A DNA stretch of 43,084 nt from a virus (lineage: Duplodnaviria; Heunggongvirae; Uroviricota; Caudoviricetes), in IMG/VR virus record IMGVR_UViG_2778261355_000014, positions 1 through 43,084 of that record, one strand, 5' to 3'. Below the pieces are notes generated by a model. It was given only the letters and a program-made list of their open reading frames with translations, did not search any database and had not been told where the DNA came from. A program made the translations under genes and the position numbers. Shown here one piece after another: positions 29,239 to 39,829 of the stretch (position 1 is the first letter of the stretch; the number at the start of each line of letters is the position of its first letter).

Positions 29239-29314
29239 TGGTGCTGGTTAACGGACTTGAACCGCTACCCATTCGCTTACAAGGCGACTGCTCTACCATT
29301 GGAGCTAAACCAGC
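29239..29314 (-). tRNA. Phage tRNA, predicted tRNA-Thr (anticodon TGT)
   Basis: Hand-folded cloverleaf: acceptor GCTGGTT/AACCAGC, D-arm GCTC-CAATGGTA-GAGC, anticodon loop CTTGTAA, T-arm AGCGG-TTCAAGT-CCGTT, encoded CCA; one G-A mismatch at the anticodon stem base. Confidence 0.6.
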
Positions 29315-29319
29315 ATATT

Positions 29320-29394
29320 TGGCGGGACAGCGTGGACTCGAACCACGATAAGAAGGTTAACAGCCTTCCGTAATGACCTTTATACGACTGACCC
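29320..29394 (-). tRNA. Phage tRNA-like gene, predicted anticodon GTT (Asn), degenerate D-arm
   Basis: Perfect T-arm CGTGG-TTCGAGT-CCACG and anticodon arm GAAGG-CTGTTAA-CCTTC, encoded CCA; T-T mismatch in acceptor stem and weak D-stem. Confidence 0.45.
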
Positions 29395-33386: not shown

Positions 33387-34763
33387 TCATACGTCAGCCC
33401 CTTGTGCATATCGTCTGCCACGCGCAGCAGGTGCATTTGATGCTGTGCAAATCTGTCTGGCTTCATCCTGGTCACATGCAACAAAGTGTCCGTTGCAGAA
33501 CCGCTGGTAAACCGTACCAAGCGAGCCAAAACGGTTTTTCGTCACGATGATTTCAGCAAATGGCGCGGCGCTACTGTTCTCGTCATATACAGCTTCCCGA
33601 TAGAGCATGATGATTGAGTCTGCGTCCTGTTCAATGCTTCCAGAATCACGCAAATCTGCGTTTGTCGGGCGTTTGTTTGGTCGCTTCTCAACATCGCGCG
33701 AAAGCTGACTCAGGGAGATAACAGGCGTTTTCAGGTCTTTCGCCATCGCCTTCAGGCTTCCGGAGATGTGAGCAATTGCGAGGTCGTTGCGGTCTGCTTT
33801 CGGCTTCTCAATCAGGCCAAGATAATCCGCCATGATGAGTGACAGGTTTGGATTTTCCTGTTTATGCCGTTCTGCGATTGAGCGTATTTCTTCGACCGAT
33901 AACCGCGAGGCATCGACTACCCATACATCCAAATCTGCAAGCTGACTCATACCGTTAGCAACACGTGCCCAGCCTTCGTCATCCATCGATGCAGGATTTC
34001 GCAGCACACTAACCGACATCCTCCCGGCGTTGGCAATGCTTCGCTCTGCGATCTGCAATGCGCTCATTTCCATTGAGAAAATCAACACTCCGCGCCGGAC
34101 GTCAGAACCAGGAATAACGCGGCTTGCAACGCCTTCGGCAATCTTCAGCGCCAGCTCGGTTTTCCCCATACCAGGACGAGCAGCGATTATCACCAGGTCT
34201 TCCGCGTTCATCCCTCCGGTGATAGCGTCAAGTTCTTCGATTCCGGTCTTCAGGGTATCGGACTCTTCTCCGTTCCTCAGACGCCTGTCAAGCGTGTCAG
34301 TGTAGTCAGTAATGATTTCCCCTAACCGTACAGGTTTAACCTCGTCACGGGGCTTTCTGATGGCTGAAAGACGCTTTACAAGCTCATCCATCGCCTGACT
34401 CGATGCGTCGATGGTTCCGCTCTGAATTGGTTCACGCATTTCATCCATGATTTCCAGCATCAGACGGCGGTGATAGTTATCCGCGACCATTCCGGCATAT
34501 CCCTTCAGGTTTGCGGCGCTCGGGCAGTTTTTGCTGGTCATCAGGATTGACGTGAAATGCTCCTCTCCGCACGCCTCGGCAACCATCAGCGCGTCGATTA
34601 GGTTTCTGTTTCTCGCCTGCTTGCGGATAACCTCGAAGGCTTTCCTGTAGAGCGGAATTGAAAACGCTTCCGGCTCCAGCGTTGCCAGAACGTCGCTGGC
34701 GGTTGGTGTTAATCCACCAATCAGCAGTCCACCGATAACGCTCGCTTCGATATCCTGTTTCAT
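33387..34763 (-). CDS. Replicative DNA helicase (DnaB family; P22 gene 12-like)
   Basis: Walker A ARPGMGKT and DnaB-like motifs; 458 aa. Confidence 0.9.
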
Positions 34764-35707
34764 GCAATCCCCCTGTCTGCAAACTTCCCTTCCCGCACTC
34801 CCGTTAACGAATCTTCCCTCAGCAGGTAATCAAAATCTGCCGTCCAGCCCGTGTCGTTGTCTCCGAAGTAAAACGGCTTGGCCTGATGCACAAACGCCCT
34901 GACATACGCTCTGAAACCGTCCACGTTTGGCGTTTTCAGTTGCGGGATGATTTTCTTCAGGCGGCGTTTTCGTTTCTCGTTGACCGCAACAGCGTGTGGC
35001 AATCTGTCACCGACTTCGGTGTTGTAGGCGTTCAGGAAGGATTCGTAGTCGATTCGTTCTGCCTTGCGACGTTCAGGTTTAACCTGCCCATCGCCTCCCC
35101 CATTGGGGGGTAGGGGGGTATTATTTATATTCTTGTTAATACCTTCTTGTTCATGATGTGCGGTTGTTTGTGCGGCTTTATGTGCGCTTTCATGTGCGGC
35201 ATGTACGCTGGAAGCCGCGCCATTACTGGCTTCATCATGTGCGGCATCATGTGCGGTTGTTTGTGCGGCTTCATGTGCGGGTGAATTGTCCATTTTTTGA
35301 GCATATTCATGGTAATTTGTGATAGTGATCACACGACCTTTTTGCTTCTCTCCATCAATGGAGATCATCCCCTCTTTCACAAAAACCTGAAGCATCCGCT
35401 CAACCTGATCACGGCTTGCTGGCTTGCCATGTCTGTCGCATAACTGAAGACCTAAATCAGCTGCTGTCACAACCAGTTGACCGGGTTGCAGATGCCATTC
35501 ATGACCTTTGAAATTCGCTTTGTATGGCTTTCTGGCGGCATTCAGGAGAAGGTTTTCCCACAGGGTGCGAAGATAAACATCTTTCGCCCATGACTGTTTC
35601 AGAATGCTCCGGTACAACGGAATGTAACCAGTTTTCTGGTTCTCCATCCTGTTGCTCCTGCGCTCGTGTGCGGCGCTGAAATCGTAGATTTTTGCTGTAT
35701 TGCTCAT
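34760..35707 (-). CDS. Replication initiator (lambda O / P22 gene 18-like) with embedded ori iterons
   Basis: 315 aa at the position between cII and the helicase; central His/Ala-rich segment encoded by the iteron repeats. Confidence 0.75.
35154..35281. repeat. Origin iterons: 8 copies of a ~12-bp unit ending TGTGCGG, in two clusters of four, next to an AT-rich tract
   Basis: catgatgtgcgg, ttgtttgtgcgg, ctttatgtgcgc, tttcatgtgcgg, then catcatgtgcgg x2, ttgtttgtgcgg, cttcatgtgcgg; AT-rich tattatttatat at 35119-35130. Confidence 0.75.
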
Positions 35708-35709
35708 AA

Positions 35710-35982
35710 CTACCTGCCTTGACGAAAGACCTTAAGAACATCGTTAAACTGACTTACGGATATGTCTTCTTTGAGAAGCTTTTCCAGAAATGCGTTTGGA
35801 ATGAACGTATATCCCTCCTCTTTTGGTAGAGACGGGAGCAACGCCCTCGCCTCAGCCTTCAGAAGCTCAGTTCTGGCAACTTTCACAAAAGAGATTTGAG
35901 TTCTTTCATCAATGGAACGAAGGAAGCGCAAACGCTTAGCTTCTTTGTGTGTATCAGGTGGATTAAAGCCTTTGTTTCGCAT
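35710..35982 (-). CDS. Hypothetical 90-aa protein between cII and the O-like gene
   Basis: Start taken at MRNKGFNPPDTHKEAKRL just after cII stop; longer ORF-track start overlaps cII and is unlikely. Confidence 0.4.
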   Translation of the reverse strand: MRNKGFNPPDTHKEAKRLRFLRSIDERTQISFVKVARTELLKAEARALLPSLPKEEGYTFIPNAFLEKLLKEDISVSQFNDVLKVFRQGR

Positions 35983-36004
35983 ATAATTACCTCGTTGGAT
36001 GTTG

Positions 36005-36298
36005 TTAAAATTCCATTTGTATTTGATCAGAACGCTCGGTTGCCGCCGGGCGTTTTTTATTGGTGAGAATCGAAGCAACTTGTCGTGCCAATCGAGCCAT
36101 GTCGTCGTCAACGACGCCCCATTCAAGAACAGCAAGCAGCATTGAGAACTTTGGAATCCAGTCCCTCTTCCACCTGCTGATCTGCGACTTATCAACTCCC
36201 ACAGCTTCCGCTGTCTTCTCAGTTCCAAGCATTGCGATTTTGTTAAGCAACGCACTCTCGATTCTTAGAGCCTCGTTGCGTTTGTTTGCACGAACCAT
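36005..36298 (-). CDS. cII: Transcriptional activator CII
   Basis: MVRANKRNEALRIESALLNKIAMLGTEKTAEAVGVDKSQISRWKRDWIPKFSMLLAVLEWGVVDDDMARLARQVA... near-identical to lambda CII (97 aa). Confidence 0.95.
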   Translation of the reverse strand: MVRANKRNEALRIESALLNKIAMLGTEKTAEAVGVDKSQISRWKRDWIPKFSMLLAVLEWGVVDDDMARLARQVASILTNKKRPAATERSDQIQMEF

Positions 36299-36357
36299 AT
36301 GTAAGTATTTCCTTAACAAATAAGAAGTTATGCGCATCAACTTATGCGCGTTGTATT

Positions 36358-36399
36358 CCCGCATTTCGGCGGGAATGAGGACCATGACTGTTAAAGAGC
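36358..36399 (-). promoter_or_regulatory. nutR (boxA GCTCTTTAACA plus boxB hairpin CCCGC-CGAAAT-GCGGG)
   Basis: Minus-strand copy of the same boxA/boxB pair found at nutL; located between cro and cII. Confidence 0.7.
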
Positions 36400-36406
36400 A
36401 ATTTGC

Positions 36407-36592
36407 TTATGCCGCTTTGCGGTAAGCGCTTTCTTGATACTTCAGGGCGCCAGCTGTAACGACTTCCAGTCGATAGGCGTCTTTCTCTGGGATGACTTCC
36501 TTCCACTGAGAGACTGCTGCGTCGCTAATGCCTAGCGCTTTAGCTACAGCACGCTGGGTTCCGAAGTGGTCGATAACATCTTTCTTGTACAT
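36407..36592 (-). CDS. cro: Cro repressor
   Basis: 61-aa HTH protein (QRAVAKALGISDAAVSQW) divergent from cI across the operator region. Confidence 0.8.
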   Translation of the reverse strand: MYKKDVIDHFGTQRAVAKALGISDAAVSQWKEVIPEKDAYRLEVVTAGALKYQESAYRKAA

Positions 36593-36599
36593 AGACTCG

Positions 36600-36668
36600 C
36601 TCCGAAATTAAAGAACACTTAAATTATCCACTAAAGGAATCTTAAGTCAAGTTTATTTAAGATGTCTT
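36600..36668. promoter_or_regulatory. OR/PR-PRM operator region with three P22-type operators
   Basis: AATTAAAGAACACTTAAATT, ACTAAAGGAATCTTAAGT and ATTTAAGATGTCTTAACT half-site pattern between cro and cI. Confidence 0.65.
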
Positions 36669-36672
36669 AACT

Positions 36673-37323
36673 ATGAAAACTCAATTGATGGGAGAGCGCA
36701 TTCGCGCTCGGAGAAAAGAACTCAAGATCAGGCAGGCCGCACTTGGAAAGATGGTCGGCGTGTCTAATGTTGCCATATCTCAGTGGGAACGCTCTGAGAC
36801 AGAGCCAAATGGAGAGAATCTTCTCGCCCTGGCTAATGCGTTGAAGTGTTCCCCTGACTATCTGATGAAAGGAGAGGAAAGTCTTTCAAACATTGCCTAT
36901 CACAGTAGGCATGATCCAAGAGGGTCATACCCTCTGATTAGCTGGGTGAGCGCAGGATGCTGGATGGAAGCTGTAGAACCATATCATAAGCGTGCAATAG
37001 ATAACTGGTACGATACAACCGTAGACTGTTCAGAAGATTCGTTTTGGTTGGACGTGAAGGGAGACTCAATGACGGCTCCGGCCGGTCTCAGTATCCCTGA
37101 AGGAATGATAATACTCGTCGATCCTGAAGTAGAGCCGCGTAACGGGAAACTGGTAGTTGCAAAGCTCGAAGGAGAAAACGAGGCAACTTTCAAGAAGTTA
37201 GTTATTGATGCAGGCAGGAAGTTTCTAAAACCACTTAACCCACAATATCCGATGATCGAGATCAACGGAAACTGCAAAATCATCGGCGTAGTTGTCGATG
37301 CAAAACTAGCAAACCTTCCATAA
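36673..37323 (+). CDS. cI: CI-type prophage repressor (HTH plus S24 LexA-like autopeptidase domain)
   Basis: N-terminal HTH QAALGKMVGVSNVAISQWERSE; C-terminal GDSM...KLEGE...K S24 motifs. Confidence 0.9.
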   Translation: MKTQLMGERIRARRKELKIRQAALGKMVGVSNVAISQWERSETEPNGENLLALANALKCSPDYLMKGEESLSNIAYHSRHDPRGSYPLISWVSAGCWMEAVEPYHKRAIDNWYDTTVDCSEDSFWLDVKGDSMTAPAGLSIPEGMIILVDPEVEPRNGKLVVAKLEGENEATFKKLVIDAGRKFLKPLNPQYPMIEINGNCKIIGVVVDAKLANLP

Positions 37324-37346
37324 AGGGGCATTCGCCCCTTTTTTTT
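37324..37346 (+). terminator. Rho-independent terminator after cI
   Basis: ggggc-attc-gcccc hairpin followed by tttttttt. Confidence 0.75.
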
Positions 37347-37349
37347 ATT

Positions 37350-37440
37350 TCCTTTAAAAATCAAAGCCAAACTTAAGTTACGAAAGAAAATTTAAGTTTT
37401 CTTCAAAAATACTCTTGACCATTAATTAAAGAGATCTTAA
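37350..37440. promoter_or_regulatory. OL/PL operator-promoter region
   Basis: Repeated TTAAGT/ACTTAA operator half-sites; TTGACC -35-like element at 37425-37430. Confidence 0.55.
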
Positions 37441-37488
37441 ATTTAAGCCATCAGCAGGACGCTGGAAGCCAAACGGAACAGATTGGCA

Positions 37489-37529
37489 GGCTCTTTAACA
37501 TTGATGGGATTGTCCCGCCGAAATGCGGG
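37489..37529 (+). promoter_or_regulatory. nutL (boxA GCTCTTTAACA plus boxB hairpin CCCGC-CGAAAT-GCGGG)
   Basis: boxA at 37490-37500, boxB at 37514-37529, upstream of N. Confidence 0.7.
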
Positions 37530-37637
37530 AACCAAAGAGTAGTTGGCTTTGGGGTGACGTGAAGTGCAGCTGCACGACGGCAACCGGAAGATAAGCACCC
37601 GGCGCGTCACCGCCAAAGTCAATCATCGGAGGTCAAC

Positions 37638-37937
37638 ATGACAGTAGTCATTACATATCTTGCTGACGATAACGCCAGAAATCGCCGCAGAGCACGCAGA
37701 CAGGCTCAACGTGAACAGGCAATGCAAGAGCAGCAACTGGCACGAAAAATTGCGCTAAAGCTCTCTGGTTGCGTCAGAGCAGATAAAGCAGCATCACTCG
37801 GAAGCCTTCTCAGCAAGAAGGCAGAAGAAGTCGAGCGTAAACAGAACCGAATTTATTACAGCAAGCCACGCAGTGAAATGGGTGTGACTTGTGTTGGTCG
37901 CCAGAAAATGAAATTAGGCAGCAAACCACTTATTTGA
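37638..37937 (+). CDS. N: Antitermination protein N
   Basis: Arginine-rich motif NARNRRRARRQAQREQ at N-terminus; C-terminus RIYYSKPRSEMGVTCVGRQKMKLGSKPLI resembles lambda N. Confidence 0.85.
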   Translation: MTVVITYLADDNARNRRRARRQAQREQAMQEQQLARKIALKLSGCVRADKAASLGSLLSKKAEEVERKQNRIYYSKPRSEMGVTCVGRQKMKLGSKPLI

Positions 37938-37948
37938 GAGGAATTAAT

Positions 37949-38572
37949 ATGTCATCAATCCGCTTAACTACGAGAATGAAAGAGGAAATCGCTCGTAACG
38001 CTTTAATTAAGTCTGGGGTTTTCACTGAACTTGAAGAAGTAACAAAGTTAAAGAACCAGCTTGCACTTGACGCCAGAGTTATTGCGTTTGGCGGTAAAAA
38101 GAAAACTGAGGAAGTGGATCAGTTATCATCCAAGTTGGTAGCTATAAGTGAAGAACTTGGAAAGATGGGATGTTCATTTTACTCATACGATGTTCGTTCT
38201 ACTTCAATTTATCTGACTGTATCTGGCAGAAGGGTTGGATGGCTTTCATATGGGAAAGACGGCAACGGCGAAGATATATTGCTCCCTACTCCGAACAAAG
38301 ATAAATGCATGTTTAGCGCAGAACACGAAATAACAAAAAGGTTTGATGAAATCTGCGTATTGCAACAAAAACTTGAAGCCAAGAAAAAGGATATCGAATC
38401 AAATGTATGGGCTGCTTTGAACTCAGTCACAACAGTTAAGCGACTTATTGAGGTTTGGCCTGAAAGCAAAGAATTGCTACCAAAAGAAGCAGATAAAGCA
38501 AGTACAGCACTTCCTGCTTTACGGGTAGAAGATTTGAATAAGATGATTGGACTTCCTTCCGAGGCCGCATAG
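37949..38572 (+). CDS. Hypothetical 207-aa soluble protein immediately downstream of N
   Basis: Start taken at MSSIRLTTRMKEEI with GAGAGGAA RBS; no TM segments; no homolog recalled. Confidence 0.5.
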   Translation: MSSIRLTTRMKEEIARNALIKSGVFTELEEVTKLKNQLALDARVIAFGGKKKTEEVDQLSSKLVAISEELGKMGCSFYSYDVRSTSIYLTVSGRRVGWLSYGKDGNGEDILLPTPNKDKCMFSAEHEITKRFDEICVLQQKLEAKKKDIESNVWAALNSVTTVKRLIEVWPESKELLPKEADKASTALPALRVEDLNKMIGLPSEAA

Positions 38573-38590
38573 TCGGCCTTTACTTTTGGC
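38562..38590 (+). terminator. Candidate terminator after the 207-aa ORF
   Basis: aggccg-catagt-cggcct hairpin followed by interrupted T tract. Confidence 0.4.
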
Positions 38591-38706
38591 ATAAACAACA
38601 GAATAAACACTGCACTGTGTATTCATTCCAACGAGTGAATACACGGAGCAATGTCGCTCGTAACTAAACAGGAGCCGACTTGTTCTGATTATTGGAAATC
38701 TTCTTT

Positions 38707-38731
38707 GCCCTCCGATGTGAGGGCCTTTTTA
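38707..38731 (+). terminator. Candidate rho-independent terminator / attenuator
   Basis: gccctc-cgatgt-gagggc hairpin followed by cttttta. Confidence 0.5.
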
Positions 38732-38796
38732 TATGCATACCAATAACGCTTCACTTGAGGCGTTTTCGTTATGCAATCAAACAGAAGGAGCATCCT

Positions 38797-38967
38797 ATGC
38801 AACAGTTCGCTATTGCAGGGGCGGCATCGGTTCGCCCTTTCAACCCGATTTTATCGGTACAGCATTCACGAAAAAATATTTTAACCGGAGCAGACTTTAA
38901 ACAACCAAGAATGAAAAGTTTGCTCGAAAAGCTTTGGGATATTTTGAAACAACAAGGCCGTCCATGA
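38797..38967 (+). CDS. CIII-like small protein (tentative)
   Basis: 56 aa from MQQFAIAGAAS; AAGGAG RBS; helical KSLLEKLWDILKQQGRP resembles the lambda CIII core as recalled. Confidence 0.45.
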   Translation: MQQFAIAGAASVRPFNPILSVQHSRKNILTGADFKQPRMKSLLEKLWDILKQQGRP

Positions 38968-39122
38968 GTTTTACAGATAACTGGTCAGACGAAGAATTCA
39001 TTCGTCAGATGAAAGAATTAATCGGTAACGAAGGAGATATTCATGTCACTTGCAACCACAGTGAAGGAGAGCAAGTTACAGAGACGCATGTACACGCAGA
39101 AAGCTCTCTGGTATCGCCATAA
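38964..39122 (+). CDS. Small hypothetical early protein (kil/arf position)
   Basis: 52 aa from MSFTDNWSDEEF; ATGA overlap with upstream gene. Confidence 0.35.
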   Translation: MSFTDNWSDEEFIRQMKELIGNEGDIHVTCNHSEGEQVTETHVHAESSLVSP

Positions 39123-39223
39123 TGGCGACCGCGAAGGAATGCGGGTATGCCTTAATTTGTCACGAGTCGAAGTATTAAATCAGCGTTATTTTCTTGGGCC
39201 GTGTCCATTCTGAGATCAAACAT

Positions 39224-39829
39224 ATGAGCAAAGAATTTTATGCAAGGCTGGCAGCCATTCAGGAGAATCTGAATGCGCCAAAGAATCAGTACAACTCATT
39301 CGGTAAATATAAATACAGAAGCTGCGAAGACATTCTTGAAGGCGTTAAGCCGTTACTGAATGGCCTGTTTTTATCAATCAGCGATGAAGTTGTGTTGATT
39401 GGTGATCGGTATTACGTGAAAGCAACGGCAACTATTACTGATGGCGAAAACAGTCATACAGCAACCGCTCTTGCACGAGAGGAAGAAAGCAAGAAAGGAA
39501 TGGATTCTGCACAAGTTACGGGAGCTACAAGCTCTTATGCACGCAAGTATTGCCTCAATGGTTTGTTCGGCATTGATGATGCGAAAGATGCAGATACCGA
39601 CGAGCATAAACATCAGCAGAACGCAGCAGCAAAGCAATCAAAACCATCACCTACACCTGAACAGGTTCTAAAAGCATTCACTGACGCAGCAATGCAGAAA
39701 AACACCGTGGAAGAGCTTAAACAGGCGTTCGCCAAAGCGTGGAAGATGCTCGAAGGCACACCGGAGCAGCACAAAGCGCAGGACGTTTACAACATCAGAC
39801 GAGACGAATTAGAAGGAGCGGCTGCTTAA
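39224..39829 (+). CDS. erf: Erf single-strand annealing recombinase
   Basis: MSKEFYARLAAIQENLNAPKNQYNSFGKYKYRSCEDILEGVKPLL... matches P22 Erf as recalled. Confidence 0.9.
   Translation: MSKEFYARLAAIQENLNAPKNQYNSFGKYKYRSCEDILEGVKPLLNGLFLSISDEVVLIGDRYYVKATATITDGENSHTATALAREEESKKGMDSAQVTGATSSYARKYCLNGLFGIDDAKDADTDEHKHQQNAAAKQSKPSPTPEQVLKAFTDAAMQKNTVEELKQAFAKAWKMLEGTPEQHKAQDVYNIRRDELEGAAA

Follow-up and report, generated by a model that had tools for sequence, protein, structure and literature searches.

This locus raises the question whether two pairs of short sequence motifs, which lie at either edge of a phage immunity region and point away from each other, constitute the nut sites of an N-dependent antitermination system, and, if so, which class of N protein they serve. 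The initial annotation had reported identical boxA and boxB elements at nutL on the plus strand and at nutR on the minus strand, and searches of the whole 43,084-nt stretch of DNA analysed here (the window) gave exact matches at just those coordinates. The 16-mer CCCGCCGAAATGCGGG (CCCGC-CGAAAT-GCGGG) has two exact copies in the 43-kb window, one on the minus strand (36358-36373) and one on the plus strand (37514-37529), and no further sites were detected in the window even when up to two mismatches were allowed. By chance a mean of 0.02 matches per shuffle is expected, and none of 100 shuffled sequences reached two. The boxA 11-mer GCTCTTTAACA, which we take to be the rrn-type boxA of E. coli (UGCUCUUUAACAA), has exact copies at 36389-36399 (minus strand) and 37490-37500 (plus strand). 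Taken alone and with up to one mismatch allowed, this 11-mer is not significant, at least two matches being found in 21 of 100 shuffles; the pair is nevertheless non-random because of its position, since each copy is located on the same strand as its boxB and 5′ of it, at a distance of 13 nt in nutL and 15 nt in nutR. The two sites are identical over the 11 nt of boxA and over 19 nt around boxB (TCCCGCCGAAATGCGGGAA), and differ in their spacers (TTGATGGGATTGT and GTCATGGTCCTCATT).

The arrangement of genes and promoters around the two sites was delineated by combining an ORF map, Pfam searches and a promoter scan. A gene for a cI/C2-type repressor (HTH_3 and Peptidase_S24 domains; PF01381 and PF00717) occupies positions 36673-37323 on the plus strand, and is followed by a terminator-like hairpin at 37322-37341 (+). 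Further downstream, the consensus scan identified a PL-like promoter, TTGACC-17-TAAATT, at 37415-37443 (+), which aligns with the phage 21 region annotated as OL1 and the pL start. The complete nutL site extends from 37490 to 37529 (+) between PL and gene N; the predicted PL start is about 40 nt upstream of its boxA, which is identical to phage 21 boxA-L. On the minus strand, a PR-like promoter, TTGACT-16-GATAAT, which agrees with the consensus at 10 of 12 positions, is found at 36650-36623 upstream of cro, the first gene of the PR operon (36592-36407; P22_Cro family, PF14549, E 8.7e-28). The nutR site (36399-36358, minus strand) comes directly after cro, with boxA starting 8 nt past the cro stop codon, and the first gene downstream of it is a cII gene of the lambda type (36298-36005, minus strand; PF05269, E 5e-48).

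The PL transcript hence has one site near its beginning, ahead of N, and the PR transcript has the other between cro and cII; the two copies face outward around the cI/cro immunity cassette. Because this gene layout fits, the placement of nutL on the plus strand and nutR on the minus strand is right, and so are the operon directions proposed initially, with the repressor gene, PL, nutL and N on the plus strand and PR, cro, nutR and cII on the minus strand. Together with the identity of both sites to nutL and nutR of phage HK620 (see below), the layout also bears out the earlier assignments of nutL, nutR, N, PL and PR. The repressor gene shows about 85-87% nucleotide identity to the immunity regions of phages 21 and P22. 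Taken as a whole, the window represents a P22-like (Lederbergvirus) prophage whose relatives include CUS-3, E212 and Kapi1.

RNA fold prediction, which had been suggested as a check on the hairpins, showed that both boxB copies form stable structures comparable to the boxB hairpins of lambda, P22 and 21. Each consists of a 5-bp core stem and a purine-rich 6-nt loop, CGAAAU; the stem is extended to 6 bp at nutL and to 8 bp at nutR, where it covers positions 36355-36376. Folded with their flanks, nutL gave -10.5 kcal/mol (z -3.1) and nutR -12.5 kcal/mol (z -3.9), and none of 200 shuffled sequences folded as well. The core 16-mer by itself folds at -7.8 kcal/mol, which is in a similar range as the values calculated for boxB of lambda (-7.9), P22 nutL (-7.1) and phage 21 (-7.3). 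The corresponding RNA hairpin of the HK620 class is CCCGCCGAAAUGCGGG. An Rfam scan of positions 34000-40000 with E values up to 1 yielded no family that matches the nut sites or the leader of N, and a match to the ToxT thermometer in the same interval was dismissed as due to chance.

String comparison showed that nutL and nutR of the window are base-for-base identical, spacers and flanks included, to two features of the HK620 record AF335538.1, labelled "nutL; putative N-utilization leftward" and "nutR; putative N-utilization rightward". The HK620 genome is said to have been described by Clark et al. in 2001 (J Mol Biol 311:657), and the prior description of the nut sites rests on the GenBank feature tables (AF335538.1). 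In phage 21 (OL657228.1), boxA-L, boxA-R, nutL and nutR are annotated at homologous positions. The window and phage 21 share the same boxA 11-mer at both sites, so that on each transcript a consensus-matching element identical to the annotated boxA-L/boxA-R is present 5′ of boxB. The initial annotation had called this element a P22-type boxA, which is only approximately right because the P22 boxA differs at nutL (GCTCTTTAACT, 10 of 11 positions identical to the window) as well as at nutR (GCTCTTTACCA, 9 of 11). The element does belong to the same long "CTCTTTA" group as that of P22, unlike the lambda boxA (CGCTCTTA), but the exact 11-mer is that of phages 21 and HK620 and not that of P22.

The gene downstream of nutL, N (37638-37937, plus strand), has a GGAGG ribosome-binding site in front of it. 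Its 99-aa product gave a match to PHROG 271, "anti-termination protein N-like" (E 1.8e-35). The match to the Pfam N_peptide family is weak, as its score of 18.4 bits is below the gathering threshold of 27.9 bits. The sequence of the protein has the two features of an N protein, i.e. an N-terminal arginine-rich motif and a C-terminal region homologous to lambda N. The motif, DDNARNRRRARRQAQREQ, spans approximately residues 10-27 and includes RNRRRARR at residues 13-20; residues 58-99 align with the lambda N C-terminus present in the antitermination complex of PDB entry 6GOV (E 1.7e-5). N is chimeric: over residues 1-64 it shares ~94% identity with HK620 N, and over residues 37-99 it shares ~95% identity with phage 21 N. 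N and its leader belong to the 21/HK620 lineage, and N is not P22 gene 24.

Comparison with the closest relatives delimits the exchanged parts. Over its first 36 residues HK620 N differs from N of the window at a single position (R33 in HK620, Q33 here), and HK620 has the same N-leader hairpin. The C-terminal third of N is phage 21-like in the window (…ERKQNRIYYSKPRSEMGVTCVGRQKMKLGSKPLI), whereas in HK620 it is P22/H-19B-like (…LPNVAIYAAGYRKSKQLTAR), and the cassette between the nut sites is P22/21-like in the window while HK620 has a different cI and cro. Phage 21 shows the converse relationship: nucleotide identity over the region is ~85%, the leader is built in the same way and the C-terminal two-thirds of N are almost identical, but both boxB hairpins differ from those of the window (7-bp stems with CCUAAC-type loops), and so does the arginine-rich motif (GTAKSRYKARRAELIAERR). 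Motif and boxB, the pair responsible for RNA recognition, have thus been swapped together. CUS-3 (CP000711.1), Gally, IME10, N7 and JEP4 are ~99% identical to the window at the nucleotide level over cII-cro-cI-nutL-N, and CUS-3 and its relatives have the same nut sites and the same chimeric N. CUS-3 carries a ~190-bp insertion, absent from the window, that separates the leader hairpin from the ribosome-binding site of N (CUS-3 locus ~2225-2430 versus window 37620-37630). In some IMG/VR loci a different junction was observed directly after the nutL boxB (…GCGGGAACTGAGTTTAACCA).

Evidence that boxB and N work together comes from comparison of N genes with different arginine-rich motifs. The comparison covered 17 N genes, from 16 phages and the window, which represent four classes, and in every one of them the class of the motif matches the class of boxB. 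Thus, the HK620 motif is accompanied by boxB CCCGCCGAAATGCGGG in the window, CUS-3, HK620, HK630 and Stx2c EH1904; the phage 21 motif by TCTCAACCTAACCGTTGAGA in 21, mEp235, PA28, mEpX1 and HK629; the lambda motif by GCCCTGAAGAAGGGC in mEp213 (gene N1) and Sf6; and the P22 motif by GCGCTGACAAAGCGC in P22, Stx2a EH0505 and ENT47670. The C-terminal modules of N, which are 21-like, P22/H-19B-like or of a third type, assort independently of these motif/boxB pairs. The contrasting classes were taken from annotated phage records because the N-anchored IMG/VR loci, which comprise only close relatives, all have the same motif class. Within that set the exact boxB 16-mer is present within 600 nt upstream of N in 78 of 79 loci, 75 of which have the nutR copy too, and the arginines of the motif are invariant across the 79 loci.

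Phage mEp213 (NC_019720.1) is a special case in that its PL operon contains two N genes, at locus positions 1516-1848 and 2500-3273. N1 combines the lambda arginine-rich motif with a nutL of the lambda type. In N2 the motif is that of HK620 and the leader hairpin is intact, but the nutL of this gene has decayed (CCCTCCGAAATGCGGG) and lacks boxA, and no cognate site for N2 was found in the 6-kb locus. N2 of mEp213 is an orphan or relic antiterminator.

We conclude with high confidence that the two motif pairs are nutL and nutR of a lambdoid, P22-like prophage related to CUS-3 and that they belong to the HK620 specificity class, as specified by the identical nut sites and the cognate arginine-rich motif. 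The observations that enter directly into this conclusion are the sequences of the sites, where and in which direction they lie, how they fold, their identity to those of HK620, the boxB/motif pairing and the homology of the N C-terminus to lambda N. By analogy with lambda, binding of N to boxB, dependence on Nus factors and read-through of terminators would be expected. RNA polymerase starting at PL or PR would transcribe each nut site, upon which the host factors NusB and NusE (S10) would bind boxA on the nascent RNA and the arginine-rich N-terminus of the phage's own N would bind the boxB hairpin. The central and C-terminal regions of N, together with NusA and NusG, would then hold the RNA-protein complex on RNA polymerase, so that the polymerase could read through downstream terminators and the delayed-early genes would be expressed. 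Such a system is a textbook N/nut system, already known and common; its specificity class was annotated in HK620 in 2001.

The distribution of the sites supports this conclusion, but parts of it might also be explained in another way. The nut pair was found in more than 150 IMG/VR loci; 156 of these have one plus-strand and one minus-strand copy, 1152-2990 bp apart, and in all 156 the two copies are divergent. The immunity cassettes bracketed by this one pair fall into 12 sequence clusters, which include lambda cI, P22/21-like and HK620-type repressors, and on either side homology between loci stops at the 5′ edge of boxA, across different cro genes. The bracketing of 12 clusters by one pair, the breaks at boxA and the fact that the CUS-3 record labels the interval from cI to N "bsq5; boundary sequence", would be consistent with repeats that act mainly at the DNA level, as boundary sequences for the swapping of immunity cassettes by homologous recombination, with only a secondary role for the RNA. 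We consider this very improbable. It leaves unexplained why the conserved block consists of a boxA consensus plus a stable hairpin in the orientation of the transcript, why nutL and nutR share the two boxes but not the spacer, and why the type of hairpin tracks the arginine-rich motif of N over four classes. A role as recombination junction is more likely to be a by-product of the conservation of functional sites. To the proposal that the hairpins close off the immunity region as terminators, attenuators or operator-like, protein-binding palindromes we attach next to no credence. Both are inverted repeats rich in G+C and located at the borders of that region, and a few unrelated viral contigs do contain the same 16-mer with a T-run behind it, resembling a terminator, but in the window they are not intrinsic terminators because no T-run follows either copy (AACCAAAG, AATACAAC), the terminator scan calls neither of them, both lie inside the PL and PR transcripts upstream of the essential early genes N, cII and O, and the repressor operators are located elsewhere, beside the -35/-10 elements, according to the phage 21 and P22 annotations.

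Under the interpretation as nut sites, the locus provides a natural example of modular evolution, in which N's RNA-binding motif travels together with the two RNA sites that it targets, while the immunity cassette and the N C-terminus are swapped independently of this set. It also confirms the regulatory map of the prophage, showing in which directions PL and PR point, which gene is N and where the immunity module has its borders. Of 5,426 complete E. coli genomes, 526 (~10%) contain the nutL-N segment. Among the matches listed for these genomes, N of the HK620 class is labelled only "hypothetical protein" (RefSeq), an annotation that could be improved.

The region between nutL and the N ribosome-binding site contains a long and very stable hairpin (37542-37623, plus strand). 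For the leader segment that includes it (37530-37645, 116 nt), a folding energy of -44.6 kcal/mol was calculated (z -4.0), and no shuffled sequence out of 200 folded as well. This hairpin is kept in HK620, phage 21 and mEp213, and one-sided changes between them preserve the pairing. In lambda, the N-leader element is processed by RNase III and is involved in N autoregulation; by analogy, the leader hairpin of the window probably corresponds to this element.

Several structures located downstream of the nut sites are candidate signals for read-through by N-modified polymerase. A small hairpin at 36332-36349 (-) comes directly after nutR, at the position of the tR1 terminator annotated in HK620. 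It was not called by the terminator scan because no T-run follows it, and it is a putative terminator. In the PL operon, the scan identified three intrinsic-terminator-like sites downstream of N, at 38561-38580, 38707-38724 and 38745-38764 (all +), and these sites, along with the hairpin at the tR1 position, are putative targets. The first gene after N (37949-38572, +) encodes a 207-aa protein that contains Nmad5, nucleotide modification associated domain 5 (PF18757, E 1.9e-71), and matches PHROG 1965, a family of unknown function. At the position of this gene CUS-3, phage 21 and Sf6 have ral, and the window differs in this respect from its close relative CUS-3. The Nmad5 gene looks like a swapped accessory gene placed directly under N-dependent PL transcription.

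The boxB loop of the HK620 class differs from those of lambda and P22. The latter two have GNRA-like pentaloops (GAAAA and GAAGA in lambda, GACAA in P22), which mimic a tetraloop by flipping out one base, whereas the loop in the window is CGAAAU. What they have in common is a short G+C-rich stem of 5 bp and a purine-rich loop beginning with GA, and the stem plus mismatch of the window resembles the P22 boxB-right, CCGC-C-GACAA-C-GCGG. The arginine-rich motifs of the window, lambda (DAQTRRRERR) and P22 (GNAKTRRHERRR) share the pattern xNAxxRRRxRR, and N of the window has no Trp at the position equivalent to W18 of lambda N. Going by its sequence, the CGAAAU loop allows two readings, a hexaloop or a GNRA tetraloop (GAAA) in which a C·U mismatch forms the closing pair. 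We tentatively raise the possibility, which we regard as somewhat doubtful, that the HK620-class boxB (CCCGC-C-GAAA-U-GCGGG) is a natural true GNRA tetraloop with a strictly conserved C·U closure that is read by a lambda/P22-like arginine-rich motif without a loop-stacking Trp, which would make it a fourth mode of N-boxB recognition after those of lambda, P22 and 21. If the tetraloop reading were true, the HK620-class complex could contact NusA differently; this point would be of modest structural interest and would not make the system one of a new type.

Sequence variation and database searches were considered in connection with the loop. The 16-mer is invariant among the nut sites sampled, and support from variation consists of U-A to U·G changes in the lower stem and of the comparison between classes. 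Variants of the loop-closing C/U (CCCGCDGAAATGCGGG and CCCGCCGAAAVGCGGG) were not found in a nut context among the IMG/VR sites sampled. The search for them yielded 243 sites in 240 stretches, all in unrelated chance or terminator contexts, and therefore provides no covariation information. One variant site with GCTCTT upstream was rejected as a nut site since its hairpin resembles a terminator and its context is unrelated. When the arginine-rich region alone was searched against the PDB, no chain matched the motif, and no solved structure was found for an HK620-class boxB, nor were the boxB sequence and arginine-rich motif strings found in the searchable literature.

Finally, some additional elements were observed in the window. 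A terminator-like hairpin with a T-run is located at 36029-36056 on the plus strand, antisense to the 3′ end of cII, where P22 has its annotated oop RNA terminator; this suggests the presence of a conserved oop-like antisense RNA, and no Rfam family matched the element. A tRNA-Arg(CCT) gene is present at 2833-2907 (+), near one end of the window, and matches to phages begin at ~1825-2910 on that side, so that this tRNA gene may mark the attachment site of the prophage. In addition, the phage itself carries a tRNA-Thr(TGT)/tRNA-Asn(GTT) pair at 29239-29394 on the minus strand.
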